From a virus, in IMG/VR virus record IMGVR_UViG_3300047322_000608, positions 11,870-75,869 of that record: 64,000 nt of DNA; one strand, 5' to 3'. Positions 32,094 through 60,804 of this stretch are shown here, in pieces (positions within the stretch are counted from its first letter, which is position 1; each line of letters begins with the position of its first letter). Position numbers and translations under genes: made by a program. The notes beneath the pieces are model-generated. The model was not told the DNA's origin. It searched no databases and saw only the letters and a program-made list of their open reading frames with translations.

Positions 32094-32545
32094 ACTCTCT
32101 GTTCCTTTCGTTTTGAAAATGCTACGCAGACGGCTAATGCTTGCCATTCATCCCCGGCTAACCCGTAGGTCTTGCCTGGGGTTTTCTTCTTTCCGGGCGG
32201 ACCGAGCAGGTCGATCAATCGTTGACGTATGGCCGCATCGTTTGCCTTGACCGATTGGCAGAGGGTAGTCTTGATCTCCTGACGATAGATCATGTGGAAG
32301 CTCGCACCTACCCACCGGCAGTATTCGCAGTATCGGCCAACCCAAAGGACCGTCTGAAACACTTCGGCTCCTACGGGCATGCCAAAGCTCTGCACCATCT
32401 CACAGACCACGGTGCCCCCTTCGGCGAACGCCAGCATGGCATCGAAGTTATCGTACTTGCCATGTCCTAGTATCTCCTCGGTCGCGGTATCGTAGATCAC
32501 AACCGCGCTCTGGGTTGTGCCAGGATCAATGCCAACGATGATCAT
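32090..32545 (-). CDS. RuvC-like Holliday junction resolvase
   Basis: IVGIDPGTTQSA, VVCEMVQ and DEWQALAV (RNase H-fold acidic residues). Confidence 0.8.
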   Translation of the reverse strand: MIIVGIDPGTTQSAVVIYDTATEEILGHGKYDNFDAMLAFAEGGTVVCEMVQSFGMPVGAEVFQTVLWVGRYCEYCRWVGASFHMIYRQEIKTTLCQSVKANDAAIRQRLIDLLGPPGKKKTPGKTYGLAGDEWQALAVCVAFSKRKEQRV

Positions 32546-32958
32546 ATCTCAGACTCGGCAAACTTTCGCCGGAAAGGACTCTTTTCATTCCCTGGTGGAG
32601 TTGCTGGGTATCCGGTTTTGGAATCGATAACGGTGTAACCGGCTTCCTTTAACGCTCTCCTTAAAAATGAGAAGCCGCAGTTGGATCCCAGCCACTGGAT
32701 CATCGTGGCGGCGACAAACCTTTCCGAAGCTGTGACGTTGTGCTGATGTCCGCGATTAGAGAACAGAGCTTGCATCAAACCAACACCGTGATGGCTGGAA
32801 TTGTTGGTAGCGTTTTCTTCCTGCCAGAGTTCTGCGAACGCTTTCTCGAGATTGTTCCACTTCGTCCGCTCGTAGTAGTCGCCACGATTCTTCATGCCAA
32901 GGTTATGCTTGTCCAGGTTGGTCATTGGCAGGAAGCTCGTTTGCGATTGCTGGCTCAT
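32542..32958 (-). CDS. Hypothetical protein
   Basis: ATG at 32958; AATMIQWLGSNCG motif. Confidence 0.6.
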   Translation of the reverse strand: MSQQSQTSFLPMTNLDKHNLGMKNRGDYYERTKWNNLEKAFAELWQEENATNNSSHHGVGLMQALFSNRGHQHNVTASERFVAATMIQWLGSNCGFSFLRRALKEAGYTVIDSKTGYPATPPGNEKSPFRRKFAESEI

Positions 32959-41052: not shown

Positions 41053-41481
41053 ATGTCAGCAACCAGTTTGATCAGTTTCGACGCAAGCGCCAACGCGGTA
41101 ACGTCTTACAACGAGAAGATGAAAACCACTACCTTGCGCTTGCTTACGGCGAAGGAGTTCAAGACGGCGCGTGGGCTCAAGGGGAACGCCGCTTCGGTGG
41201 CTTACAATGCCTACATTCGGGAGCATGGTCTGGCGAACACGGCGGGTTTGGCGGCGGCGCTCACGTCGGGTGAGTTGTTGGTTCGTTCGGCGAGGGACAG
41301 CTCGAAGTCCCTGAACGTGTCGTTTGTCAAGAAGTCTGCCATCAAGGACCCGGCCGTGAAGTCTGCCCCTGCCCCCGAAGTCACGGCTCTGGAGACTGAA
41401 GTTGCCAACCTGAAGGCTATGCTGGCTGGGCTTGGCGCGAAAGCGGAAGAGATTGCGGCGGCGCGCCCGAGCGCGGTGTAG
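41053..41481 (+). CDS. Hypothetical protein (first early gene)
   Basis: Strong RBS, biased codon use. Confidence 0.65.
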   Translation: MSATSLISFDASANAVTSYNEKMKTTTLRLLTAKEFKTARGLKGNAASVAYNAYIREHGLANTAGLAAALTSGELLVRSARDSSKSLNVSFVKKSAIKDPAVKSAPAPEVTALETEVANLKAMLAGLGAKAEEIAAARPSAV

Positions 41482-41514
41482 TCGGTCCGTGGCGGGTAAG
41501 TCTGGCGGCAGATT

Positions 41515-41555
41515 GGCAGGGTTGGAGCGTGTCTCCTGCCCTGCCGCTTCTGTTT
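41515..41555 (+). terminator. Possible terminator
   Basis: GGCAGGGT...GCCCTGCC stem followed by CTTCTGTTT. Confidence 0.4.
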
Positions 41556-41590
41556 CTAGAGTCCGTTTAACCTGGAACAAGTACGAACGT

Positions 41591-42487
41591 ATGCAAGACA
41601 TGACTGCGCTGGCGGAGCAAATCCGGCAGCGTATTCTCGCGTCTCAGCCTGCCGCGGAAGTGCCTCGGAAGGCTGGGGATGCGGGAGTTGCTGCCCCTTT
41701 GGGAAGCCAGAGGCAGCATTACAAGTTCCCGTTGTTGCTGGCGGCCGTGGCAAGTGGCGTGGACGCCATTGCCCTGGTTGGTCCGGCTGGAACGGGAAAG
41801 ACGACAGCGGCGCATTCGTGCGCCAAGCTGCTGGGCAGGCGCTTTGAGCCTACCAGCTTCGGTCCGACCACGTCCAAGGCTGACTTGTTCGGCTTTGTGG
41901 ACGCGAACGGGGTCTATCGTGACTCCGCTTTAGTGCGAGCTGCCAGGGATGGTGGCGTGTTCCTGGGGGACGAGCTTGATGCTGGTCATCCTGGGGTTGT
42001 TACGGGCCTGAACATGGTTCTGGCCAACGGCGTGTTCGGCATTCCGACCGGGGTGCTCGAGAAGCACGCGGAGTTCGTTCCCATCTTCGGGATGAACACG
42101 TACGGGACCGGGGCGAACCGGCAATACGTGGGCAGGAACCAACTGGACGCTGCGAGCCTGGACCGGATGGCTGTGATCGAATGGGATTTGGACTGCGGGT
42201 TAGAAGCGGCCATGGTCGGGGTGAACGGGGTGCAATCGCCTGCGTTCGATCTGGGCAAGCACGGGACCATGACAGCGCCGCAGTGGTTGGCGCGGGTTTG
42301 GTCCGTCCGGAAAGCGATTGAATTGCTGGGGGTCCGGCACATCGTTAGCCCGCGGTGCTCGCAGAACGGCATCAAGCTGTTCCGGGCTGGCGTGGGCAAG
42401 GCGCACGTCCAGGAAATGGTGCTCTGGAAAGGGATGGACGCGGAGACCCGGGAACGGGTTGAAGCCAAGGTAAAGGAGATCCTGTGA
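41591..42487 (+). CDS. MoxR/CbbQ/CobS-like AAA+ ATPase
   Basis: GPAGTGKT, FLGDELDA, MNTYGTGANRQYVGRNQLDAASLDR, VSPR. Confidence 0.9.
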   Translation: MQDMTALAEQIRQRILASQPAAEVPRKAGDAGVAAPLGSQRQHYKFPLLLAAVASGVDAIALVGPAGTGKTTAAHSCAKLLGRRFEPTSFGPTTSKADLFGFVDANGVYRDSALVRAARDGGVFLGDELDAGHPGVVTGLNMVLANGVFGIPTGVLEKHAEFVPIFGMNTYGTGANRQYVGRNQLDAASLDRMAVIEWDLDCGLEAAMVGVNGVQSPAFDLGKHGTMTAPQWLARVWSVRKAIELLGVRHIVSPRCSQNGIKLFRAGVGKAHVQEMVLWKGMDAETRERVEAKVKEIL

Positions 42488-43302
42488 GCGCCAAGACCGG
42501 GGTAACGGTTGAGCGCCGGGCCTTTACGGGATGGCATCAATTCGTGGAACAGGTCCGCAAGCCGATGTCCTGGGACGTGGCCGGCCAGAGCACGGCGGAG
42601 CGTTCGTATAGCTGGGCTTTAGGGGCTTCCTACGACGATGCGCTCAAGCTGGCGACTACGGGCTGGGCGGAGGGGTTCAAGGCTGTCTCCCTCAAAGCGC
42701 AGGCGATCTGCAAGGCGCACGGCGGGCTGGACTTGAGCCCGCGCTTTGCGGAATCTGGCGACGAAGTGGACGTCGGGCTATTCCTGGCGGATGAGCCGGA
42801 GTGCATGGTCGAGTATCCGATGGAGCCCAAGCAGCGTCCGGTCGTCAAGATTGTGGTCTCCGCTTCGTTCTCGGGCGGGATTGCCGCGGAAGAGATTTAC
42901 AACCGCGGTGCGGCGATTCTGGCGGCGATAGATCTCCTGGAAGGGGCTGGGGTCCGGGTCGAGGTTGACCTGGACATGGGAACGGAGACCGGGCGCCGGC
43001 AGTTCATCCGCACGATACCGCTCAAAGCGGCCAACGACGCGCTGGACCGGGACAAGCTGGCCTTTGCGATCTGCCATCCGGCGACGTTGCGGAGGCTGAT
43101 CTTCCGACTGCACGAGCAGGACGGGGTGGATGCGTTCGAGCGGATGGGCGGGTGCCAATACGGCCATCCGATCAATCCGGCGCCGCAGGACGGGGCGATC
43201 GTGATCAACGCGCTCACCATGAGCAACGAGGGCGAGTTCCGGACGATGGAGCAAGCGCAGGCGTTCGCGGAGCGGGTCCTGGCGGAAGTAAGCGGCGATT
43301 GA
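42484..43302 (+). CDS. vWA-like partner of the MoxR ATPase
   Basis: GDEVDVGLFL..EPECM, RGAAILAAIDLLE..G.RVEV, LAFAICHPATLRR; coupled to the ATPase. Confidence 0.7.
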   Translation: MSAKTGVTVERRAFTGWHQFVEQVRKPMSWDVAGQSTAERSYSWALGASYDDALKLATTGWAEGFKAVSLKAQAICKAHGGLDLSPRFAESGDEVDVGLFLADEPECMVEYPMEPKQRPVVKIVVSASFSGGIAAEEIYNRGAAILAAIDLLEGAGVRVEVDLDMGTETGRRQFIRTIPLKAANDALDRDKLAFAICHPATLRRLIFRLHEQDGVDAFERMGGCQYGHPINPAPQDGAIVINALTMSNEGEFRTMEQAQAFAERVLAEVSGD

Positions 43303-45707: not shown

Positions 45708-46172
45708 ATGCGAACAATCACTTGCTACAAACTGTTTCAAACCAAGCGGACGGCGCCGGGCCGGATCTTCCCGCTCTTCATCGGCAAGGATAAGCCGACT
45801 CCGATCGGCGAATGGGTTCCGGCGCAATTCCTGCCGACCGATGGCTTTGCGCCGCGGCCGGGCTGGCACGTCGGGCCTTTGCCCAAGGCTCAGCATCTGA
45901 TGTGCAAGGACGGGACCATGCCAGCCAGCCGGGTGTGGGCCCAGGTCGAGATCCTGGCGGACGTGGATTACACGCCATTGGCTGCCATTGCACCGACCAA
46001 GGATCTGCGCGGCCAAGTGCCGCACGGTGGATACTATCGCTTCCCCAGGCCGATCAACCAGGGCGGGGAGTGGATCATTGCCGGGCAGATTCGGGTGCTG
46101 CGGCTGTTGTCGGAAGAGGAAGTTCAGCAGATACTCAACAACGCGCATGATACCCAGGCTGCTCTCGTATGA
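45708..46172 (+). CDS. Hypothetical protein
   Basis: YKLF...PLFI...GFAPRPGWH...RVWAQVE...GGYYRF motif set. Confidence 0.6.
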   Translation: MRTITCYKLFQTKRTAPGRIFPLFIGKDKPTPIGEWVPAQFLPTDGFAPRPGWHVGPLPKAQHLMCKDGTMPASRVWAQVEILADVDYTPLAAIAPTKDLRGQVPHGGYYRFPRPINQGGEWIIAGQIRVLRLLSEEEVQQILNNAHDTQAALV

Positions 46173-46929
46173 TTGGATTGTCCTAAACAGTTCGGCGGGA
46201 AAAGACTCGCAGGCAATGCTCGATTACGTGGTTGAGCAGGCCGATGCGGTTGGGTTCCCGCGCTCCAAGATCGTGGTAGCGCACGCCGACCTGGCTAAGG
46301 AAGAATGGCAAGGGACCAAGGAACTGGCCCGGAAACAAGCGGAGCACTACGGGTTGCGATTTGTCGTCATGAAACGGCGCCGCGCGGATGGGTCGGACGA
46401 TTCGATCCTGGCTTATGCGCGGCGGCGCGGTAAATGGCCGAGCAGCGGCAATCGCTGGTGTACGTCCGATTTCAAGCGCGGCCCGATCGGCCGGCTTTTC
46501 ACCAGCTTGGGCGAAGGACTGATCCTGAACTGCCTGGGAATGCGAGCGCAAGAATCGCCGAGCCGGGCCAAGTTGCCTGAGTTCGAGGAAAACAAACGCT
46601 ACACAACAGCAAGCCGGTGCGTGGACAACTGGCTGCCGATCCATTCCTGGACACTCGAACAGGTCTGGGCGCGGATCAAAGCGTCGGGCGTACCGCATCA
46701 TTATGCCTACGACCTTGGAATGCCCCGGCTGTCGTGCTGCTTCTGCATCTTCTCGCCGAAGCCTGCGCTGCTCCTGGCTGGGAAGCACAACCCGGAACTA
46801 TTGGCCGAGTACGTTGCGACCGAGACAGCAATCAATCATTCCTTCCGCAACGGCTTCAAGATCGCCGAGATTAAAGCGGCCCTGGACGCAGGCGAGCAAC
46901 CAGGCAGGGTCCAAGACTGGGTCATGTAA
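46147..46929 (+). CDS. PAPS reductase-family (PP-loop) protein
   Basis: NSSAGKDSQA, RWCTSDFKR.PI, GMRAQES..RA, RLSCCFC. Confidence 0.85.
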   Translation: MIPRLLSYDWIVLNSSAGKDSQAMLDYVVEQADAVGFPRSKIVVAHADLAKEEWQGTKELARKQAEHYGLRFVVMKRRRADGSDDSILAYARRRGKWPSSGNRWCTSDFKRGPIGRLFTSLGEGLILNCLGMRAQESPSRAKLPEFEENKRYTTASRCVDNWLPIHSWTLEQVWARIKASGVPHHYAYDLGMPRLSCCFCIFSPKPALLLAGKHNPELLAEYVATETAINHSFRNGFKIAEIKAALDAGEQPGRVQDWVM

Positions 46930-51648: not shown

Positions 51649-52548
51649 ATGAGTGATGGCAAATTGATCGATGGCGTCCTGGTCTGCATGACCAAGTCGT
51701 GCGGGATAGCCGGGTCCAAGGTGGACAAGGAGATGACCGCCGAAGTCGAGGACGATAAGAACGCCGGCCACGGAGCTGGCACCTGGAGCAACAAACTCTT
51801 CCCGCCTAAAGCGTGCGGCAAGAAGAACAGCTTCACCAACCTGCGAACGCACATGAGCCAGATGTACCACTGGCACATGGCCAATTCGTTCGTGTTCGAG
51901 AACGAACTGTGGCGGATCCTTCCAACCAAAAGAGTGGAAGCCTACCGCCAGGTCGTGGAAGTGGCAGGCAAGGCGACAGCACACACGCTATTGAACGAGT
52001 TCCTGGACGATTACGAGAACCTGAAGGATCTGGCGCGCAGGCCGCAACCGGACGGACGCGGCGAGTTGTTCAAGGACGACGATTACCCGTCCAAGGAAAC
52101 GATTCGAGCCAAGTTCTTCTACGACGTCAGCTATCGGCCGCTGCCAACGTCGGGCGGGTTGAATCCCAATCTGTTCGCAGAGGCTATCCAGCAGTTGAAT
52201 GAGCTGCACGCGCAACGGTTGGCCGAAGCCAACGCGACCCTGGTCACGCGGTTCCTCGAACCATTCAAGATCCTGAGCGAGCAGTTGAAAGATCCCGCCA
52301 AGCGCAAGATGGCCCCGGTCCTAGACACCATCCGCGAGTTCAGCCAGATCGTCCCGTCGCTGGACCTGTCGGGTAACACCGAGCTGGTCGAGTTGGCCCA
52401 GCAGATCAGCGTCACGTTCGCGGACCTGACGCCGGACGCGATCAAGAAGGACGAAGAAATGGCCAAATTTGTCGGTCAGACAGCCGACTCCGTTATCAGC
52501 GCGCTCGGCCGGTTTGGGAATCTTGGGCAAAGGAAGTTCGCAGCTTAA
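51649..52548 (+). CDS. Conserved phage protein (DUF3150-like)
   Basis: SKVDKEMT.EV...SNKLFP...WRILP...LFKDDDYPS....R.KF pattern. Confidence 0.55.
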   Translation: MSDGKLIDGVLVCMTKSCGIAGSKVDKEMTAEVEDDKNAGHGAGTWSNKLFPPKACGKKNSFTNLRTHMSQMYHWHMANSFVFENELWRILPTKRVEAYRQVVEVAGKATAHTLLNEFLDDYENLKDLARRPQPDGRGELFKDDDYPSKETIRAKFFYDVSYRPLPTSGGLNPNLFAEAIQQLNELHAQRLAEANATLVTRFLEPFKILSEQLKDPAKRKMAPVLDTIREFSQIVPSLDLSGNTELVELAQQISVTFADLTPDAIKKDEEMAKFVGQTADSVISALGRFGNLGQRKFAA

Positions 52549-52568
52549 CCACAAACGAAAGGAATAGT

Positions 52569-53021
52569 ATGTCTCACGTTATTGGAATTACGCTGGTCAT
52601 TAAAGACCTGCACGCACTGGAACAGGCCTGCAAAGACCTGGGCCTGACATTTGTTCGGGATCAGAAAACCCACGCCTGGTTTGGGCGCTGGGTCAACGAC
52701 TACAGCCAGAAGGACGCTGCCTACAAGAACGCCGGCATCAAGCCGGAGAACTACGGCAAGTGCGAACACGCGATCAAGGTCCCGGGGTCGGGCTACGAGA
52801 TCGGGGTTTACAACAATCCGCAAGGTAAGGGCTTCATCCTCGCCTACGACAACTATGGAACCGGGCAGGTCATCCTGCAAAAGCTCGGGAGCGGCCTGGA
52901 GAAGCTCAAGCAGGCGTATGGGGTCGCAAAGGCGACGATCGAGGCGAAGGCCAAAGGTTGGATCGTCTCGAAACAGACGCTCGCCAGCGGCTCAGTCAAG
53001 CTGGTTCTGACGGGTGTTTAA
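52569..53021 (+). CDS. DUF1257-like protein
   Basis: MSH.....VIKDL.ALEQAC.DLG...YEIGV...KLKQAY......EAK.KGW...GSVKLVL. Confidence 0.75.
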   Translation: MSHVIGITLVIKDLHALEQACKDLGLTFVRDQKTHAWFGRWVNDYSQKDAAYKNAGIKPENYGKCEHAIKVPGSGYEIGVYNNPQGKGFILAYDNYGTGQVILQKLGSGLEKLKQAYGVAKATIEAKAKGWIVSKQTLASGSVKLVLTGV

Positions 53022-53024
53022 CCT

Positions 53025-53303
53025 ATGCCAAAGTTCAAAGTTTGGGAAGAGGTCCGTTTGAATACGGCCCGGGAGCGAGCCACGGACTTCCTGGCTGATC
53101 TTCAATCCTGCCTCGTGGATAGGTCTATCAGCGGTCGTACATACGACGCGCTAGTTAACGCCATTGAGTACCGAAAGGTATTTGTCGTGGTCGCAAAGGA
53201 AGTGGATGCGGAGGAGTTTGAATCCTACGAAATCAAAATGCGTGACGGAAAGGCGAAGCTGCCTTGCATGGTGACAGAGGATGACCTTGAAGGAGTTTCG
53301 TAA
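53025..53303 (+). CDS. Hypothetical protein
   Basis: Clean ORF in the operon. Confidence 0.5.
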   Translation: MPKFKVWEEVRLNTARERATDFLADLQSCLVDRSISGRTYDALVNAIEYRKVFVVVAKEVDAEEFESYEIKMRDGKAKLPCMVTEDDLEGVS

Positions 53304-53515
53304 TGGCTTACGGTCCCGGCAAATACTCCGCGCTCTGCTCCCAAGCGATGCTGGACGCGAAGGCGGTTGCCTGCGTCCTGGTTACGCTTGGCGGAGAGCA
53401 TGGCAGCGGATTTGAAGTCGTTGGCCAGCCCGGAGTGGTCTTGGACATACCCGCGATCCTCCGGGAAATGGCCGACTCAATCGAACGCGACGAGAAGAAA
53501 GTAAAAGAACAATGA
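53303..53515 (+). CDS. Hypothetical protein
   Basis: GPGKY..LC...GSGF motif. Confidence 0.6.
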   Translation: MAYGPGKYSALCSQAMLDAKAVACVLVTLGGEHGSGFEVVGQPGVVLDIPAILREMADSIERDEKKVKEQ

Positions 53516-53709
53516 CAAGGCTACCAATACCGGTCGGAGCCCACATGCGCTACCGCAAGAACGGCAGAACGCTTTGGGGTCAGAAGCACGAAAACAAACC
53601 GATCACCTGGACGACAATCGCCCCACCGAAGGGGACTAAACTCTACGTCATCGGTTGGAACAACGGTCAACAGAGCCTGCTGGCCAGCCGCATCGAAACT
53701 CAGGAATGA
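53512..53709 (+). CDS. Hypothetical protein
   Basis: ATGA-coupled. Confidence 0.45.
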   Translation: MTRLPIPVGAHMRYRKNGRTLWGQKHENKPITWTTIAPPKGTKLYVIGWNNGQQSLLASRIETQE

Positions 53710-54005
53710 AAACGCCCGAGCAGCAACTGATCGACAAGATCACAGCCGAATGGGCCGACAAAGGCCAGGTCGTTGAAGGCGGATGGCGGGCGTTCTTAGC
53801 CGTTGGGATGGACAAGAAAGCCCCGCCCATGCAAATCGAGGAAATGCGCAAGGCATACTTCCTGGGCGCGCAACACCTGTTCGCGTCCGTCTTGAACATG
53901 CTCGGTCCTGGTTCCGAACCGACCGAGAAGGAAATGCGAAGAATGGACTTGCTCCGTCATGAAATGGAGCGATTCGTTCTGGAAATGCGACGGAGTAACA
54001 ACTGA
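53706..54005 (+). CDS. Hypothetical protein
   Basis: AP..Q..EMRKAYFLGAQHLF motif. Confidence 0.6.
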   Translation: MKTPEQQLIDKITAEWADKGQVVEGGWRAFLAVGMDKKAPPMQIEEMRKAYFLGAQHLFASVLNMLGPGSEPTEKEMRRMDLLRHEMERFVLEMRRSNN

Positions 54006-54019
54006 CAGAAAGGAACAGA

Positions 54020-54205
54020 ATGAAACAGATTGAAGTTATTGTTTCGCCTGATGGCGAAGTCACAATCGATGTCGTTGGCTTCAAAGGCCAAGGCTGCGAG
54101 AAGGCCACCAAGGCGCTGGAGGAAGCCATGGGCATCACAGGTAAGCGCAATCGCAAACCGGAATACCACGCTCACGAAGCGGCAACCCAAAAGGCATCGG
54201 CGTGA
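54020..54205 (+). CDS. DUF2997-like protein
   Basis: IEVIVSPDGEVTIDVVGFKGQGC..AT.ALE..MG....KPEY. Confidence 0.8.
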   Translation: MKQIEVIVSPDGEVTIDVVGFKGQGCEKATKALEEAMGITGKRNRKPEYHAHEAATQKASA

Positions 54206-54525
54206 GGACCGAATCGATGTTCATCCGTGCCGATGGACAAATCGAAGTGATCGGCGACGTGCCGCTGGAGCTGGAGCAGATCGGCAACTGCCGGCGCGAG
54301 CGTGCCAGCTCGATTGTTCCGCTCCACCTTGGCAAGCGGATCGCGTTCTTGCTGCTGCGCACCATCTTCGGAGAGCGCGGCATCACGGCGGAATGGACAA
54401 GGGCCTGGCGCGGGCCATGGTTCTGCTTGCTCTACGCAACCGGAGAGACCTTCTGCCATCCGTCCAGGCGAGTCTGTTTGGCCTGGGAGCGGGCTAGGCT
54501 GGAACAAATCATGGAGCGACAATGA
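54202..54525 (+). CDS. Hypothetical protein
   Basis: IRADG....RASSIVP...CLAWE; GTGA-coupled. Confidence 0.55.
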   Translation: MRTESMFIRADGQIEVIGDVPLELEQIGNCRRERASSIVPLHLGKRIAFLLLRTIFGERGITAEWTRAWRGPWFCLLYATGETFCHPSRRVCLAWERARLEQIMERQ

Positions 54526-54719
54526 ATGAAGAACAGAGATTAGAATACGAGGCCTGGAAGTCGGTCGCGCGTTGCTGGCCTGGCGATATTAACGATCAGA
54601 AGTTCAACAATGTCCTGAAAGCAATCAGGGTTTGGGGGGAAAGGCTCTCCGCATTGCGTAGGACCCAACCTTCGGAAACTGTGGATCGAGCACGGTTAAT
54701 GGTTGAGTCCAGGTTATAA
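54522..54719 (+). CDS. Hypothetical protein
   Basis: ATGA-coupled. Confidence 0.5.
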   Translation: MNEEQRLEYEAWKSVARCWPGDINDQKFNNVLKAIRVWGERLSALRRTQPSETVDRARLMVESRL

Positions 54720-54751
54720 CATCAAGTCAACCAAAAGGAACAGATACGAGT

Positions 54752-56293
54752 ATGAGCAAAAGCACCAAGGAAACATTGCGCGATTATTTCCGCGCCGGCT
54801 ATTCAGGCCTATACCTGACCAGCTACGAGGAGCAACGGGTCGAATCCGAATTGGCCGCCATCGCCAACGAGATCGGATTTAGCCTTTACTCCTGGACGGT
54901 GACCGATTCACTGTCCGGCCCAGTCGGACACGACAAGCCGACCGTTTGGACTGGGGAAGGCGGCGACCCGCTGAGCCCGATAGAGCTGCTGGACAAGATC
55001 AACGCGGTCTTGCCTGAGAAGTCCATCGTCCTGGCCAAGGACTATCACCTATTCGTCAACGAGCCCAATCCGATCATCATCCGCAAGGTGAAGGATTGCC
55101 TCTTGATCGCCAGGAACAATAACCGGCACCTGGTCATCCTGGGTTGCAGTTTCAAGCTCACGCCTGAGCTGGAAAAGGAATTCACGGTCGTCGACTTCGC
55201 CTTGCCCGACCGGGATCAGCTCGGCGTTGTGCTCAAGGGGATCGCTGACTCGGCCGGCATCAAGGTCAACGGTAACCGGGATCCGATCGTCGATGCTGCT
55301 TCGGGTATGACTACCACGGAAGCTGCGGATGCGTTCGCTCTGGCTGTAGTCGAGAGCAAGAACACGGAGATCGCGCCAACGGTTGTCGCCCGGGAGAAGG
55401 CTCAATGCGTGAAGCGCTCTGGAATTCTCGAAATTCTGGAAGCCAATGAGACGATTGCCACGATGGGGGGATGTGCTGCCGCAAAAGACTGGATTCTGAA
55501 AAGGAGGCACGCCTTTGGTAAAGATGCGAAGTCTTACGGGTTGCCGGTGCCGCGGGGAATTCTCCTCCTGGGGCCGGCTGGTTCTGGCAAAACCCATCTG
55601 GCGAGGATCATCGCAAACGTGCTTGACGTGCCGCTCTTGAAACTGGACGGCGGCAAGTTATTCTCTTCTCTGGTAGGGTCGAGTGAGGCCAATGTCAGGA
55701 ACGCAATCGCCACGGCAGAAGCAGTTGCTCCAGTGGTAGTGCTCGTGGATGAAATTGAAAAAGCGTTCTCTGGTAGCCAGTCCAGTGGCCAAACCGATGG
55801 GGGAACATCCGCTCGCGTCATGGGGACGTTTCTTCAATGGATGAACGACAAGACTAAGCCGGTTTTTGTGGTTGCGACCAGCAACAACGTAAGCCAGCTC
55901 CCACCCGAGTTCCTCAGGAAGGGTCGCTTCGATGAGCTGTTCTTCGTGGATCTTCCCGATCAGGACGAAAGGGAGGAAATTTTCAAAATCCACATTGCGA
56001 AAAGGAATCGCAAGCCGGACGCCTTCAACGTCGCCGCATTGGCATCGGCCACAAATGGGTTCACGGGAGCAGAGATCGAAGCTGTGATAACTGAGTCTCT
56101 GTTCTCAGCGTTTGACGAAAAGATGGAGGTTGAAGACCGCCACGTTCTTGAATCAATATCAGCAACCGTCCCGCTCTCCCGCACGATGGCTGCACAGATC
56201 GAATCATTAAGAACATGGGCCAACGGGAGAACGCGAAAGGCATCGCTTCCGAAGCCTCAAGCTTCGCAGCATGGCCAGCGAAAGATAGCTTGA
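54752..56293 (+). CDS. Ycf46-like AAA+ ATPase
   Basis: YLTSYEEQRV, PRGILLLGPAGSGKT, LVDEIEKAFSG, LPPEFLRKGRFDELFFVDLP, VPLSRTM...I..LR.WA. Confidence 0.9.
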   Translation: MSKSTKETLRDYFRAGYSGLYLTSYEEQRVESELAAIANEIGFSLYSWTVTDSLSGPVGHDKPTVWTGEGGDPLSPIELLDKINAVLPEKSIVLAKDYHLFVNEPNPIIIRKVKDCLLIARNNNRHLVILGCSFKLTPELEKEFTVVDFALPDRDQLGVVLKGIADSAGIKVNGNRDPIVDAASGMTTTEAADAFALAVVESKNTEIAPTVVAREKAQCVKRSGILEILEANETIATMGGCAAAKDWILKRRHAFGKDAKSYGLPVPRGILLLGPAGSGKTHLARIIANVLDVPLLKLDGGKLFSSLVGSSEANVRNAIATAEAVAPVVVLVDEIEKAFSGSQSSGQTDGGTSARVMGTFLQWMNDKTKPVFVVATSNNVSQLPPEFLRKGRFDELFFVDLPDQDEREEIFKIHIAKRNRKPDAFNVAALASATNGFTGAEIEAVITESLFSAFDEKMEVEDRHVLESISATVPLSRTMAAQIESLRTWANGRTRKASLPKPQASQHGQRKIA

Positions 56294-56296
56294 CTC

Positions 56297-56620
56297 ATGA
56301 GCACACCAAAACTCGGATCATGCTGCATCTGCGGCAGGAAGAAGAATGTCCGAAACATCCTCAGTCTTCACACGCCATGTCCTACTCCGGGCAAAGGCTG
56401 GGGTTGTGTGGTCTGCGGGCTGCCTGCGAACGGCGCCATAGCCGTATTGTGCGACGGGTGTCACGACGATTTCCTAGCTGGAAACGCGCAGCTAATGTGG
56501 ATCTGCACCGGATACCCAGGAGTGGACGGTCGAACGCCTTACGTCGCGGAGCATCATCAGCTCTTGGACAAGTTCGACCACGACTATTCCAAACATCCTG
56601 AACACGTCGTCAACAACTAA
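56297..56620 (+). CDS. Cys-rich Zn-binding protein
   Basis: CCIC...GWGCVVC...CDGC. Confidence 0.6.
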   Translation: MSTPKLGSCCICGRKKNVRNILSLHTPCPTPGKGWGCVVCGLPANGAIAVLCDGCHDDFLAGNAQLMWICTGYPGVDGRTPYVAEHHQLLDKFDHDYSKHPEHVVNN

Positions 56621-56631
56621 TCCGTGAACAC

Positions 56632-56838
56632 TTTGGCCAGCAGCAATCGCTGTAGAAGGCGTTCCCAGGCCCAGATGTTTCGTCTGGTTCGCCGTTACAA
56701 CGGAATGGCCATTGAGTTCAGTTCAGCCGTTCGGAAACTAGAAGAACTCGAGAAGGAGGCCTCCTCAGACTACGGCCAATCTTCTCGAGTTCAACTACTT
56801 TCCTTCCCGCTGAACTTCGGATTGCTGTCTGGCCGAAA
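56632..56838 (+). ncRNA. Retron msr-msd ncRNA (candidate 1)
   Basis: 17-bp terminal inverted repeat 56632-56648/56820-56837, unpaired G56649, short msr hairpins including a UUU loop, and a 97-nt msd hairpin 56720-56816. Confidence 0.8.
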
Positions 56839-56884
56839 CTTTGGGCGGTTGGTTCCGATTCGTACCGGAATGGTTCCTTAGCCC

Positions 56885-56916
56885 GCGCCGTAGCCAACCT
56901 AAACGGCGCCCTTTTT
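56885..56916 (+). terminator. Rho-independent terminator after the retron ncRNA
   Basis: GCGCCGT-n11-ACGGCGC-CC-TTTTT. Confidence 0.65.
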
Positions 56917-56920
56917 AATT

Positions 56921-57208
56921 ATGGATCAACCAAAACTGCACCGTGAAATTCTGGAAGTCGGTGACCAAGTCAATTGCGATTGGTGCAACCACGATTATAC
57001 CGCATCCGACCTGTCCGGGGGGTTCCTGTTCGGCAACTATGCGGTCTGCCCGGAATGCGCCGTGGTAAAGATGGAAAGCATCAAGGCGCTAAACGAAGAG
57101 AACCACATCGGGGAGCGTTGTCCGCACGATCTCTCTTTTGCCGACTGGGTCCGAAAGCTGCGTTATCGAACAGCCCAAACCAAAGTCATCATCACCACAC
57201 GAGAATGA
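56921..57208 (+). CDS. Zn-ribbon protein
   Basis: CDWC...SGGFLFG..AVCPEC. Confidence 0.65.
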   Translation: MDQPKLHREILEVGDQVNCDWCNHDYTASDLSGGFLFGNYAVCPECAVVKMESIKALNEENHIGERCPHDLSFADWVRKLRYRTAQTKVIITTRE

Positions 57209-57804
57209 CCGCTACCGAATACCTAGCGCACATCGATCAGGCGATTGCCAAAGCCAATAACCTGCACGGCAAACATTGCTGCGCTAAAGGCTGTCATCAC
57301 TGCTGCTCCGAAGAGTTGCACGTCGACGAGCGCGAGGCTGACCTGATCATCGAGAACATCCATCCCAAGAACCTGAAACAGATTCAGGAGCAGACGGCTG
57401 ACTGGTTGAGCAAGGCCGCTCCACTCCTGGACACGGAAGAAGTCCATGGCGTCATGGCCTGGCGCGCGATTGACAAGCCGTGCCCCCTCCTGATCGATGG
57501 GATCTGCTCGGTCTACTCGGTCCGGCCCATGGCCTGCCGGATGTTCTTTGCCATGGGTAAGCCGGTCGATTGCCAGATGCCGCAACGGCAACAGCAGAAG
57601 TTTGCTAACTTCGACATGGACAAGATGGCGGCTATGATGGTTCCGTTCGTTCAGGACGAAAAAACGGCGGTCATGGATCACCTGGGCGTGTTCCTGGCGG
57701 AGAAGATTCTCGACCTGGATCTGGGCGGGAAGACCAGGACGATTTTTATAACCCAAAACGAAGACCAAGGAAAAGAAGATCGGGCCGTTGAGAGCGTGCC
57801 ATGA
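57205..57804 (+). CDS. YkgJ-family Cys-cluster (Zn/Fe-S) protein
   Basis: CAKGCHHCC...CPLL.DG.CSVYSVRPMACR. Confidence 0.85.
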   Translation: MTATEYLAHIDQAIAKANNLHGKHCCAKGCHHCCSEELHVDEREADLIIENIHPKNLKQIQEQTADWLSKAAPLLDTEEVHGVMAWRAIDKPCPLLIDGICSVYSVRPMACRMFFAMGKPVDCQMPQRQQQKFANFDMDKMAAMMVPFVQDEKTAVMDHLGVFLAEKILDLDLGGKTRTIFITQNEDQGKEDRAVESVP

Positions 57805-57809
57805 ACCTT

Positions 57810-57959
57810 TTTTTCGCGCTGTTGGTGTTGGTTGCTGAGCCTGGTGGCAGGCGTAGGCTAGCCCTGGTCGGATCGACAGGAAAGCGACAAAGCCAACGTC
57901 TCGCGTAGAGACAAAAACGGAACTTCGTGAACGAAGTCCCGTGGGAACGGCGCATAAAA
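57810..57959 (+). ncRNA. Structured RNA upstream of RT (retron-like ncRNA candidate 2)
   Basis: Closing stem GCGCTGTT/AACGGCGC with opposed G57824/G57945, an internal two-hairpin junction and a further 11-bp hairpin 57917-57942. Confidence 0.55.
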
Positions 57960-58010
57960 CATGGCAGCGGTGAGTGAGTGACAAAAGCCTCACCGCTGCT
58001 TCACTTTACG

Positions 58011-58964
58011 ATGCAAAAACTGCTAATCCCAAAGAGCAACGGCCGCACACGCACTGTGTATGTGCCTGATGACGATCTCAAGCGGTCACTCCGCGCGCTC
58101 GTCCCCCAGCTCAACCTTCTGGCCGAAGAGCTGGACATTCACCGCGTTTGCCACGGCTTCACAGAAGGCCGAAGCCCGGTTACCAACGCCAAGTGTCACA
58201 TCGGATTCGAGTACACGGTCTCGTTCGATCTGGAGAACTTTTTCGATAGCGTCACCAAAGACCACGTCTGCCGAGCCTGCGAAGGAAAGCTCAAGGTATC
58301 GGACTGGGCCTTCTTGACTCCGGCATTCCAAGATTGCTTCGTTGACGGAGCAGCTCGCCAGGGACTACCTACATCACCAGCCTTGGCTAACATCGGGTTC
58401 TCGCCGGCTGATCGCGACATCATGGCGCTCTGCCCGAGGGGGAGGTTCGCGGAGCGCCCGTTTGTTTACAGCCGTTACGCTGACGACCTGACGTTCTCCT
58501 GCCGCACCATGGCCACAGTCGAACTCCTGAAAGAGGAGATCCCGCGTATCGTTGAAAAACACGGCTTTAAGATCAACGCAGCCAAGACCAGGATTCAGGC
58601 TGCGGTAGCAGGAAGGCGCATCATCACCGGAGTAGCCGTTGGCCAGCACGACGTCACGATCACGCGCGAGGTGCGGCGCCGCATCCGCGCGGCCCATCAC
58701 CAGGACACAGCCGGGTTGAAGCGGCGCAACATCCGGCGCATGCTCTTCGATCGAAAGCGTTGGAAGACCAGGTTGCCATTGCGCGCCCGGTTCCATTACA
58801 GCATGAAAGGGCTGATCGAATGGGGGAAGCTCAAGATGCCAAAGAATGCCAAGGACCAATCCAAGAGCGCCGTGGTCCGCGCAGCTGCCAGAGTGGTCGC
58901 AGCCGTAGCCGGACAGGACGTGAGCAACCGCATCGTTAAAGCGTGGACCAGGAGGTTCGGGTGA
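58011..58964 (+). CDS. Retron-type reverse transcriptase
   Basis: IPKSNGRTRTV, HGF..GRS..TNAKCH (region X NAxxH), DLENFF, QGLPTSPALAN, YSRYADDLTFS, N..KT and IITGV (region Y VTG-like). Start taken at ATG 58011. Confidence 0.92.
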   Translation: MQKLLIPKSNGRTRTVYVPDDDLKRSLRALVPQLNLLAEELDIHRVCHGFTEGRSPVTNAKCHIGFEYTVSFDLENFFDSVTKDHVCRACEGKLKVSDWAFLTPAFQDCFVDGAARQGLPTSPALANIGFSPADRDIMALCPRGRFAERPFVYSRYADDLTFSCRTMATVELLKEEIPRIVEKHGFKINAAKTRIQAAVAGRRIITGVAVGQHDVTITREVRRRIRAAHHQDTAGLKRRNIRRMLFDRKRWKTRLPLRARFHYSMKGLIEWGKLKMPKNAKDQSKSAVVRAAARVVAAVAGQDVSNRIVKAWTRRFG

Positions 58965-59395
58965 CACCGGACTGGGCCGCTCTTGGTCTAGCTGAGTTTC
59001 GGACATGGTTCGGGATTAACGGCGGCTGCTACGCGGACTTCAAAGATGAGCACGGCCAATACAGGATGGTCGGAGCGGACGGACCGGCAGAGCTGTACAA
59101 GGCTTGCTTGCAGTATGTCACGGTCAAAGAGCAATCATCGGATAGTTACGAACTAATACGGCACGAAGGAAAGACGCCGACCTTGCGCCCGAAGCATCCC
59201 AAGAACATCTCAACTTGGGCTAAGCCTGAACCAGAGACAGTCCCATCGGAATGGACCAAGGCGGCACAGAACCAGTTTAATGAAGAGATTATGGAGGCAA
59301 TCCGAAAGGTCCCGAGCCTCACACCGAAGCAGCCGAAGAACGAACCGTCGAAACCGAAACCCAACGAGAATCCTTGGAAACGTAGATTCGGATGA
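58961..59395 (+). CDS. Hypothetical protein, candidate RT partner
   Basis: GTGA overlap with the RT stop; ends in WKRRFG versus RT WTRRFG. Confidence 0.65.
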   Translation: MTPDWAALGLAEFRTWFGINGGCYADFKDEHGQYRMVGADGPAELYKACLQYVTVKEQSSDSYELIRHEGKTPTLRPKHPKNISTWAKPEPETVPSEWTKAAQNQFNEEIMEAIRKVPSLTPKQPKNEPSKPKPNENPWKRRFG

Positions 59396-60012
59396 CATCA
59401 CCACCATCACAGTACCTTCCATCCCGGCCTGAGCAATTTGTAGGCAAGACGCGGCGTATAGCCGTCGCTCTCTTCGCCAAGGCTCAAGCCATAAAACTGA
59501 ACAACGCCTCCGCCAAATGGCTGTTTACGGGGCCGCCTGGCCTTGGGAAGAGCCGACTGGCCGAAGTCCTCGCCCGGGACCTGGCGCACCACCCAAGCTA
59601 CATCGAGCACCTGAATGGCCAGAGCTTGAACGTGGACTTGGTTCGGGAGTGGGAACGGAACCTTTGCTACAAACCGATTAGCGGCGAACGATCAGCGAAG
59701 GTCATCGACGAGATCGATGCCGCTTCCACCGCGGCCCTAAACGAGCTACGCACTTATCTGGACCGGCTCAAATCTGGAACCGTCGTGATCGCTACCACCA
59801 ACCGGACGATCAAAGAATTGCCGGCCCAACTCCAAACCCGGTTCTTCTACTACCAGTTCGAGCCAGTCACCCCGGACGACTTCGCGGATTGGATGGCAAC
59901 TCAGTTCGGCTTCGACCGATCCGTTGCTCTGGACATCGGCAAACGAAACATGGGATGCGTCCGGTCGGCCATGATAGACTGCGAGGCGCACCTGGACAGG
60001 GAGGAACTGTGA
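59392..60012 (+). CDS. Clamp-loader/RarA-clade AAA+ ATPase
   Basis: P....QFVG, LFTGPPGLGKS, VIDEID, IATTN, LQTRF, G.VRSA. Confidence 0.8.
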   Translation: MTSPPSQYLPSRPEQFVGKTRRIAVALFAKAQAIKLNNASAKWLFTGPPGLGKSRLAEVLARDLAHHPSYIEHLNGQSLNVDLVREWERNLCYKPISGERSAKVIDEIDAASTAALNELRTYLDRLKSGTVVIATTNRTIKELPAQLQTRFFYYQFEPVTPDDFADWMATQFGFDRSVALDIGKRNMGCVRSAMIDCEAHLDREEL

Positions 60013-60203
60013 GACTTGAAGACCTATCTCCTATGCCATTCGGAAAGTATGTTGGAACTCCCATGCAGGACGTGCCAGCGGGTTACCTGCATTGGTTGTG
60101 GGTGAACGGCATGAAGGACGACATTCACTGCAACGTGGCGGATTACATTCGCCGCAGCTTGGACACTCTCAAGAAAGAGCATCCGGATGGGATTTGGACA
60201 TGA
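60009..60203 (+). CDS. DUF3820-like small protein
   Basis: MPFGKYVG.PM.DVP..YL.WL. Confidence 0.75.
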   Translation: MRLEDLSPMPFGKYVGTPMQDVPAGYLHWLWVNGMKDDIHCNVADYIRRSLDTLKKEHPDGIWT

Positions 60204-60388
60204 CAGCCAAAAAGATCGACATGCCGCGCGAGTTTGAATTCGCCAACGACGCCTTCATTCTCGTGCCGGAGTACACGGACGACGGCGCCAAGGCCCAGGC
60301 CGAGCTGGATGCGGCTATGGAAGCCAGGCGCGCGAAAGCCAAGGCCCAGCTCCAGCTTCCTCTGGATAACAACAAACCGAAGTTATGA
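60200..60388 (+). CDS. Hypothetical protein
   Basis: ATGA-coupled; QLQLPL resembles a sliding-clamp-binding motif. Confidence 0.5.
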   Translation: MTAKKIDMPREFEFANDAFILVPEYTDDGAKAQAELDAAMEARRAKAKAQLQLPLDNNKPKL

Positions 60389-60804
60389 GCCAAAAGAAAC
60401 GTTGCTCCGGCGAAGAAGCCTGGAGCAGACGACTCGACCGGTTCGTGCCGATCCTGGTTCGCCTTCTGGCCCGGGACCCAAGAGGACGCCCGCTGACAAC
60501 CGCGGAGATCGCCGAACGGTCTGGCCTGTTCCCGATGGAGATAGAGACCCTGTCCCGCGCCACGTCATGGGATGGCGTCACCATCCCGACTTACCGATCC
60601 TTCTGCCGGGCTTGCAACCTGGACCTGATGAACTCGCAACAGGCCAAACGCAACGAGGTTTACCTAAATGGGAAGCTTGTCAACGGTGTTCGGCAGCCAT
60701 GCCTGTGGTTATTCCTTAAACGCGATCCGGCCTGGGAGACCTACTACCGGCCGCTCATGCTCCTCTACATCGAGTTCATTACCAAGAAATTGAAAACGCC
60801 ATGA
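60385..60804 (+). CDS. HTH DNA-binding protein
   Basis: LTTAEIAERSGLFPMEIETLS; adjacent to the integrase. Confidence 0.6.
   Translation: MSQKKRCSGEEAWSRRLDRFVPILVRLLARDPRGRPLTTAEIAERSGLFPMEIETLSRATSWDGVTIPTYRSFCRACNLDLMNSQQAKRNEVYLNGKLVNGVRQPCLWLFLKRDPAWETYYRPLMLLYIEFITKKLKTP

Follow-up and report, generated by a model that had tools for sequence, protein, structure and literature searches.

A shared C-terminal tail on a viral retron-type reverse transcriptase, its orphan partner and a Ycf46-like AAA+ ATPase

Proteasome activators carry short C-terminal tails, HbYX in PAN, Rpt and archaeal Cdc48 and GQYL in mycobacterial Mpa and Bpa, through which an AAA+ ring and unrelated proteins use one docking site. 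In phage T4, the proteins gp43, gp33 and gp55 share a C-terminal peptide that docks on the ring-shaped gp45 clamp, the T4 tails being hydrophobic and acidic. Here we describe C-terminal tails encoded in a 64,000-nucleotide stretch of viral DNA (hereafter the window), which covers bases 11870-75869 of the complete 75,869-bp IMG/VR virus record IMGVR_UViG_3300047322_000608. Five proteins of the window bear such a tail: a retron-type reverse transcriptase (RT), the orphan protein encoded directly behind it (the partner), a DUF3150-like protein, a 138-amino-acid (aa) protein and a Ycf46-like AAA+ ATPase. In related phages the tail is conserved, goes together with the ATPase gene and follows the spelling of the ATPase's own tail. 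On balance we lean, if only slightly, to the view that the tail is an address tag, which would send all five proteins to one receptor that is part of, or works with, this Cdc48-like ATPase.

The Ycf46/Ycf35/DUF2997 gene set, conserved in cyanobacteria, in plastids and in many phages, has no assigned function; on mobile elements, DUF3150 joins it. Our literature searches returned no functional study of the Ycf46/Ycf35/DUF2997/DUF3150 module, the cellular set appearing only in gene-content mentions. As in these described sets, the window holds homologues of all four members, and its ATPase has a conserved tail. The tailed proteins of the window are the following.

58011..58964, + strand: retron-type RT, assigned by matches to RVT_1, to retron RT structures and to PADLOC models
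58944-58961, + strand: RT tail W-T-R-R-F-G (KAWTRRFG-stop), codons TGG ACC AGG AGG TTC GGG
58961..59395, + strand: partner, a 144-aa orphan from the open reading frame (ORF) call, in which a Pro/Lys-rich linker connects an N-terminal part to the tail
59375-59392, + strand: partner tail W-K-R-R-F-G (NPWKRRFG-stop), codons TGG AAA CGT AGA TTC GGA
54752..56293, + strand: Ycf46-like AAA+ ATPase, 513 aa, phrog_8638 (E 1e-129), Pfam AAA and AAA_lid_3
56273-56290, + strand: ATPase tail G-Q-R-K-I-A, read from the sequence
51649..52548, + strand: DUF3150-like protein, 299 aa, distant members of which match Pfam DUF3150; tail G-Q-R-K-F-A-A at 52525-52545
32542..32958, - strand: 138-aa protein of unknown fold; tail R-R-K-F-A-E-S-E-I (PFRRKFAESEI-stop) at 32545-32571

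Tail sequences and their conservation

The original prediction, made from the letters of the window, had drawn attention to the WTRRFG and WKRRFG ends of the RT and its neighbour and to the related ends GQRKFAA, GQRKIA and PFRRKFAESEI on three further proteins, and all five are present in the sequence. It had also placed the match between RT and partner at the level of protein rather than of a recent DNA duplication. We agree, since 6 of the 18 tail bases differ and a comparison of the RT C-terminus with the partner falls short of significance (E 0.023); a recent duplication of the tail was thus rejected. The core of the tail is R-[RK]-hydrophobic followed by 1-6 residues to the C-terminus. 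In the remaining 11.9 kb of the genome, outside the window, no further tail was found.

The reading frame of the RT opens at GTG 57978, while nearly all homologues start at a Met that matches ATG 58011 (M12, at least 90% conserved in alignment A1), and the true start is probably this ATG. The family matches are Pfam RVT_1 (E 2.6e-21) and phrog_2825 (E 2.5e-40). The nearest solved structure is the RT of retron Ec86 (E 5e-35), with the Ec83, Ec67 and Ec78 RTs within E 5e-35 to 1e-29, and PADLOC places the model RT_III-A on top, followed by XIII and II-A, its retron RT models matching at E 1e-44. Both retron signatures can be read in the protein, NAxxH as VTNAKCH and the VTG-like motif as IITGVAV. 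By its core, with NAxxH and VTG, and by its nearest relatives, which are retron RTs, the enzyme classifies as retron-type. An Rfam search (E<=1) of positions 56500-60500 returned no known RNA family around it.

The RT gene runs directly into that of the partner. For the latter, GTG 58961 is most likely the start, which corrects an earlier call at 58943: this GTG overlaps the RT stop codon as GTGA and sits 5 nt past the AGGAGG at 58950-58955, where the two Arg codons of the RT tail double as the partner's Shine-Dalgarno site. The stop codon of the partner in turn overlaps ATG 59392 of the next gene as ATGA, and the tails of RT and partner both close with TTC GGN TGA and an overlapping start codon. 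From this gene layout, RT, partner and the AAA+ protein that follows are predicted to be a translationally coupled three-gene chain, the last member of which is:

59392..60012, + strand: 206-aa clamp-loader-like AAA+ protein, Pfam AAA (E 9e-12) and DNA_pol3_delta2, phrog_5846/168, no tail

Among homologues of the RT that are 40-76% identical to it, 113 of 120 have an R-x-hydrophobic tail near the C-terminus; the middle position is R or K in 93 of these, and the consensus reads [FL]G-x-[FWY]-x-R-[RK]-[FIL]-x. Residue R325 is at least 90% conserved in the alignment, with the preceding 30-40 residues being variable. The ATPase homologues end in [RK][RK][FILMV]x0-5 in 116 of 120 cases, typically as GRKLA or LRRLAA, and in some of their tails the motif lies up to 10 residues from the end (NMRKLSIAIGNDEE). 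In the DUF3150-like family, for which 1960 relatives were found, one subclade ends in FGxxGxRKFA(A) and remoter members end otherwise; some DUF3150-like proteins close with ARRFAESEAA, very near the tail of the 138-aa protein. Conservation in orthologues, on which the original prediction had made its own fate depend, was thus found for the RT, for the AAA+ ATPase and for one subclade of the DUF3150-like proteins.

The same prediction had placed the tail beyond the folded core, and AlphaFold (AF2) models of single chains bear this out, the last residues of RT and ATPase having a predicted local distance difference test score (pLDDT) below 50. In the RT model (mean pLDDT 87), a confident core of about residues 11-285 is followed by a weakly predicted helix at 298-327, and the tail, residues 323-328, stands at the end of this low-confidence C-terminal extension. 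The ATPase is predicted to be disordered from about residue 491. Short linear motifs are usually built in this way, as a disordered tail behind a folded core.

We asked how far the tails go beyond chance, as they could also have no specific partner at all, being generic anchors for nucleic acid or membrane, or the outcome of chance together with start, stop and Shine-Dalgarno constraints. The constraints are real for this gene pair, given the AGGAGG that serves as the partner's Shine-Dalgarno site and the common TTC GGN TGA ending, and membrane tails of the MinD type look similar. The statistics within the window are weak as well: R[RK][FILM]x1-6-stop occurs on 4 of the 92 called proteins, where 1.3 are expected (p ~0.04), and a pair that matches in 5 of the last 6 residues turns up in 2% of shuffles of the window proteins. 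This excess is modest, and it is the conservation in homologues that decides that the tail is beyond chance. Indeed, the motif is conserved across hundreds of sequences, the acidic spellings of relatives described below exclude a purely electrostatic anchor, and tails such as SQHGQRKIA are not amphipathic. A Shine-Dalgarno or other DNA artefact as the general cause was rejected because CGC AAA, AGA AAA, CGA AAG or CGT AGA stand in this place in homologues and in the other tails. Conservation thus largely refutes this explanation, and we regard it as highly improbable.

The Ycf46-like ATPase and the spelling of the tail

Five cyanobacterial genomes have ycf46 homologues that are 37-42% identical to the ATPase over its full length (E 1e-107 to 1e-116). 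The AF2 model of the ATPase superposes on the Cdc48/p97 D1-D2 tandem (Foldseek top matches at E 2e-18) and is built from a degenerate D1-like domain and an active AAA domain. The co-oriented block at 51649-56293 consists of homologues of the Ycf46/Ycf35/DUF2997 set plus DUF3150, and by this homology it belongs to the module. Besides the ATPase and the DUF3150-like protein, its members are:

52569..53021, + strand: DUF1257 (Ycf35)-like protein, 150 aa, no tail, aligning with the cyanobacterial Ycf35 neighbours of ycf46
54020..54205, + strand: DUF2997 protein, 61 aa, Pfam DUF2997 (E 7.5e-17), ending in TQKASA

For the former, the Pfam DUF1257 score (E 1.7e-3, 19 bits) lies below the cut-off of 22.2; the homologue at locus L161 passes with E 1e-6, and no solved structural relative was found. 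The DUF2997 gene is hidden beneath a longer out-of-frame ORF (54030-54497), and its homologues in other phages have tail-like ends of the form [QE][RK][IVL].., such as QRVKA, QRIGI, ERIRH and QKVGG.

We compared 54 related viral loci, whose ORFs were called greedily and clustered into families, and 80 more loci around distant ATPase homologues, the comparison of spellings spanning about 90 phages; many loci are kin to one another, so that the counts overstate independence. Across the 54 loci, six families stand out for the strict tail, namely the RT, the ATPase, a second AAA+ protein, a small protein and two DUF3150 groups: 35 of their 75 members have it, as opposed to 25 of the 1240 remaining ORFs (2%, as expected by chance), and several of these 25 are small ORFs adjoining the ATPase. 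The RTs of the window and of L001, L003, L004, L008 and L015 are tailed and have the ATPase no more than 10 kb away; four of the five loci are closely kin. Ten viral records with a tail-less RT were searched over their whole length: nine of them, two of which are complete genomes, have no ATPase, and the tenth has one 50 kb away, with tailed neighbours of its own. In addition, seven RT and ATPase matches probably lie on shared contigs, the contigs being of equal size.

Not only the presence of the tail but also its spelling goes with the ATPase. Over the 80 further loci, ATPase tails read RALDL, RTIDL, RRRIM, VRKLRK and others. Acid-type tails (R..h[DE]h) end 17 of 454 non-ATPase ORFs in loci with an acid-type ATPase, versus 3 of 664 in basic-type loci (Fisher p 8e-5, odds ratio 8.6), and one of the three belongs to an acid locus that was misclassified. 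The DUF3150-like tail switches with that of the ATPase, as shown by the pairs (ATPase/DUF3150-like) SRAATLDL/SRASVLEL at L245, GRRIDA/GRVIDIE at L249 and GRAIDA/SRVMDVE at L251, with VRKVR/GRRKIV.. at L260 and GQRKIA/GQRKFAA in the window as the basic counterparts. At L003, ATPase and DUF3150-like orthologue both end in TRKIAKAA and the RT in NRKITA; at L169, the spelling is RVL on the ATPase, RVI on the RT and RAI on the DUF3150-like protein. A striking local expansion is seen at L277, a 548-kb viral contig: next to an ATPase with the end PRDLDL, five small ORFs of 74-263 aa close with R[WLF][DE]ILDL. At L165 (10340-11869), three proteins end in RVIRR and agree in the first nine bases of the tail (CGGGTTATC) within unrelated flanks, behind which short-patch DNA copying or codon bias may stand. 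Arg-hydrophobic ends also occur on a RecA-like protein and an SF2 helicase of other phages. Altogether, the tail sequences indicate that co-resident proteins take on the ATPase's own spelling across phages, with two caveats, phylogeny and a permutation test, that are weighed below.

In cyanobacteria the picture is different. The Ycf46 homologues of the five genomes (L198-L202) all end in AEYQRMEF-stop, a conserved end that contains Arg, yet in these genomes the exact RMEF-stop is found on the ATPase only and on no other protein above the control level, whereas phages copy the tail to other proteins. Because cyanobacterial Ycf46 keeps a conserved tail that no other protein shares there, we conclude that the tail is native to the ATPase and has been copied to other proteins in phages.

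The receptor could also be a factor of the host. ClpX recognizes C-motif 2, with the consensus R/H-x-K/R-K-hydrophobic (PMC3983244), and the tag of MuA reads QNRRKKAI (PMC12723719). Tails of this type would mark the proteins for turnover by ClpXP or for remodelling by ClpX. The likeness is that phage proteins have a terminal basic cluster with a hydrophobic residue behind it, as in the RRKKAI of MuA (PMC3983244), and many AAA+ homologues, ending in [KR]-x-R-[RK]-[LIM]-A-A, fit the consensus. The RT and the partner, however, with A-W-T-R-R-F-G and P-W-K-R-R-F-G, lack the first basic position and fall outside it. Moreover, acidic spellings such as RALDL track the ATPase of their own phage, tailed RTs go with the phage ATPase rather than with a host factor that is present everywhere, and cyanobacterial Ycf46 keeps a different tail. 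We thus consider recognition by host ClpX very unlikely.

Recruitment of the ATPase and its clients by some other host hub, such as the sliding clamp, SSB, the receptor of the FtsZ tail or the replisome, is in our view quite unlikely as well. It would suit the clients, which belong to DNA metabolism (the RT and a protein of the replication block; elsewhere the RecA-like protein and the SF2 helicase), and F-x-R-K is akin to the C-terminal FLRK of FtsZ. Nevertheless, the tails match neither the clamp motif QL[SD]LF nor the acidic logic of the SSB tip, and the wide divergence of spelling, tied to the ATPase tail, is not expected for a conserved host target. A few RT homologues, ending in GQRKLIP or GQRRFSIP, resemble the clamp-binding motif (QL[SD]LF or QxxLxP-like), but most are without Gln and the second hydrophobic residue. 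The case of T4 gp45 differs in that no sliding clamp is encoded here and the tails are basic.

The original prediction had sought the common hub among the three AAA+ ATPases of the window or in a host factor. Of the three, the presence and spelling of the tail single out the Ycf46-like ATPase, whereas the CobS/MoxR-like (41432-42487) and the clamp-loader-like (59392-60012) proteins are tail-less and show no link.

A candidate address tag and its receptor

We thus favor an address tag that works through the phage's own ATPase. This reading builds on the conservation of the tail, its disorder, its association with the ATPase gene and its concerted spelling; from these we infer that the tail binds, that there is a receptor and that the outcome is recruitment, remodelling or turnover. 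WxRRFG would be the RT flavour of a C-terminal short linear motif native to the ATPase module, and the flexible extension of each protein would present it to a common receptor that coevolves with it. The receptor could be the D1-like ring or the pore of the ATPase, a cofactor, or a platform to which the tail of the ATPase itself binds. Docking of the tail would then bring the clients within reach of a protein-remodelling motor. As for the partner, which would be made in step with the RT by coupling and bears the same RRFG version on its Pro/Lys-rich linker, this combination fits a competitor or an adaptor for the place of the RT, and competition is what the original prediction had proposed.

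Some candidates for the receptor were tried and dropped. Docking of the ATPase tail in cis, on the protein's own N-domain, was rejected because the tail is free in the AF2 model. Positions 177 and 181 of the ATPase seemed compensatory for RK versus RV tails, but the RK-tailed proteins of the L003 type have T/A there. A clade-weighted charge scan of acid versus basic spellings returned nothing but clade markers, at positions 16 and 197-210; for the most part, the acid clades form a single superclade.

The closest rival to the address tag is a strict degron. Here the Cdc48-like ATPase of the phage would thread the tail through its pore, leading to unfolding, disassembly or hand-over to a protease, with the partner acting as a decoy. 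The ATPase is a classic-clade AAA+ protein with a Cdc48/p97-like fold, and the tails are terminal, disordered and strictly tied to the ATPase gene, all of which would suit such a role. Yet the module shows no evident protease partner, the motif can sit some way inside the C-terminus, as seen among the ATPase homologues, and an ATPase that bears its own degron requires an extra assumption. We consider a strict degron possible but rather unlikely.

Several observations weigh against the address tag itself. The spellings largely track the phylogeny of the ATPase, so shared descent accounts for part of the concordance, and a generic permutation test of tail identity within genomes in the RK clade gave p 0.08, which is not significant. 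Two flavours of the tail stand side by side in one genome, aromatic-x-RRFG on RT and partner versus GQRK[FI]A on ATPase and DUF3150-like protein; two docking sites are a possible explanation. The model of the ATPase monomer leaves its own tail undocked, and scans of the ATPase body for residues that would compensate the charge did not pass their controls. One lineage (that of L172) has tails, yet neither DUF1257 nor DUF2997 was detected within 10 kb of its ATPase; this, together with the tail-like end of DUF2997 itself, bears on the two proteins as the receptor. Finally, a search of 5.8 billion proteins for orthologues of the partner returned only the partner itself, which leaves its tail without an orthologous counterpart.

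In function, the nearest parallels to the tail are the HbYX and GQYL peptides, the Arg-rich motifs of Vps4 and p97 and the clamp-binding tails of T4. Like HbYX and GQYL, by analogy at least, the tail is a short, flexible C-terminal peptide that is found on an AAA+ ring and is common to unrelated proteins. It differs in that none of the five window tails has a Tyr, the motif is not always at the very end and no 20S-like core is evident; the clients here would be enzymes of DNA metabolism and not alternative caps. As in the Vps4 MIT-MIM pair and in the motifs of p97/Cdc48 (VIM and VBM; the C-tail of p97 that goes to PUB/PUL), Arg-rich terminal motifs would direct cofactors or clients to a type-II/classic AAA+ unfoldase, but here no MIT, N-domain, PUB or PUL was detected and the ATPase bears the same motif as its putative clients. 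From ClpX C-motif 2, the system is set apart by the off-consensus ends of RT and partner, by a spelling that covaries with the phage ATPase and by the existence of acidic variants. Hence, as judged by those defining features that can be checked in sequence, which are absent, the tail system is not a member of the HbYX/GQYL, clamp or C-motif 2 families.

What is new here is that a retron-type RT and a dedicated orphan partner are among the clients and that two tail flavours occur in one genome; our literature searches found no description of a retron-type RT as the client of such a tail system. A bolder and distinctly more tentative possibility is that phages run an address code, in which a peptide defined by the ATPase module wires in any protein that bears it, and that in this genome a retron-type RT and its decoy or adaptor have been captured. 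If so, an ATP-driven remodeller would gate the activity of the RT or the fate of an RT-msDNA particle, and a retron RT would for the first time be linked to an AAA+ unfoldase. For the Ycf46/Ycf35/DUF2997 set, the ATPase's peptide offers a direct experimental handle on its clients, which point to DNA metabolism, with the RT and the replication-block protein here and the RecA-like protein and helicase in relatives. A viral retron-type RT that is plugged into the module together with a tailor-made partner would also suggest a way in which phage RTs are controlled. Should the code prove portable, engineered phage systems could use the tail as a tag for recruitment.

Further observations on the partner and on neighbouring genes

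The partner has no match in Pfam, PHROG or PADLOC and nothing usable in the ESM Atlas. One metagenome locus that is fairly close to the window has a YkgJ-like gene, and not the partner, after the RT. At L169 (17780-18025), an 81-aa ORF right after the RT contains the linker motif of the partner, EP(S/T)xPKPN (E 0.008), and ends in ..PKPNHA-stop. Although this ORF lacks the tail, it may be a relative of the partner in the same position; the match is too weak to use. In L161, L164 and L166, the Ycf46-like ATPase has in its vicinity a homologue of the 206-aa AAA+ protein, the third gene of the chain.

The gene of the 138-aa protein lies between an exonuclease-like gene and that of a RuvC-like resolvase, adjoining a DnaB-like helicase, and a search of the ESM Atlas with the protein gave nothing usable. 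In one lineage (L172, L179, L183, L184, L187, L193, L194 and L197), it is the ATPase that lies inside the replication block, the order being DnaB-like helicase, Toprim primase, SF2 helicase, MerR, RecA-like protein, ATPase and SAP-domain protein. One ATPase homologue, P0132, has 804 aa with an intein-splicing domain (PF14890) and is encoded on a 61,319-nt contig; the RT homologue P0033 is also on a 61,319-nt contig.

Elsewhere in the window, a DUF7192 protein comes after the CobS/MoxR-like AAA_5 ATPase of phrog_249 (41432-43302), and a PAPS-reductase-like gene (45988-46929) lies in the same early region. In cyanobacteria, a protein of about 116 aa encoded just upstream of ycf46 ends in a conserved acidic EEELVPC-stop, and a phage family adjoining the DUF3150-like protein (e.g. 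L003:36-1085) ends in EEEEEPCEA-stop; from their sequences, these ends may represent a second, acidic tail system.

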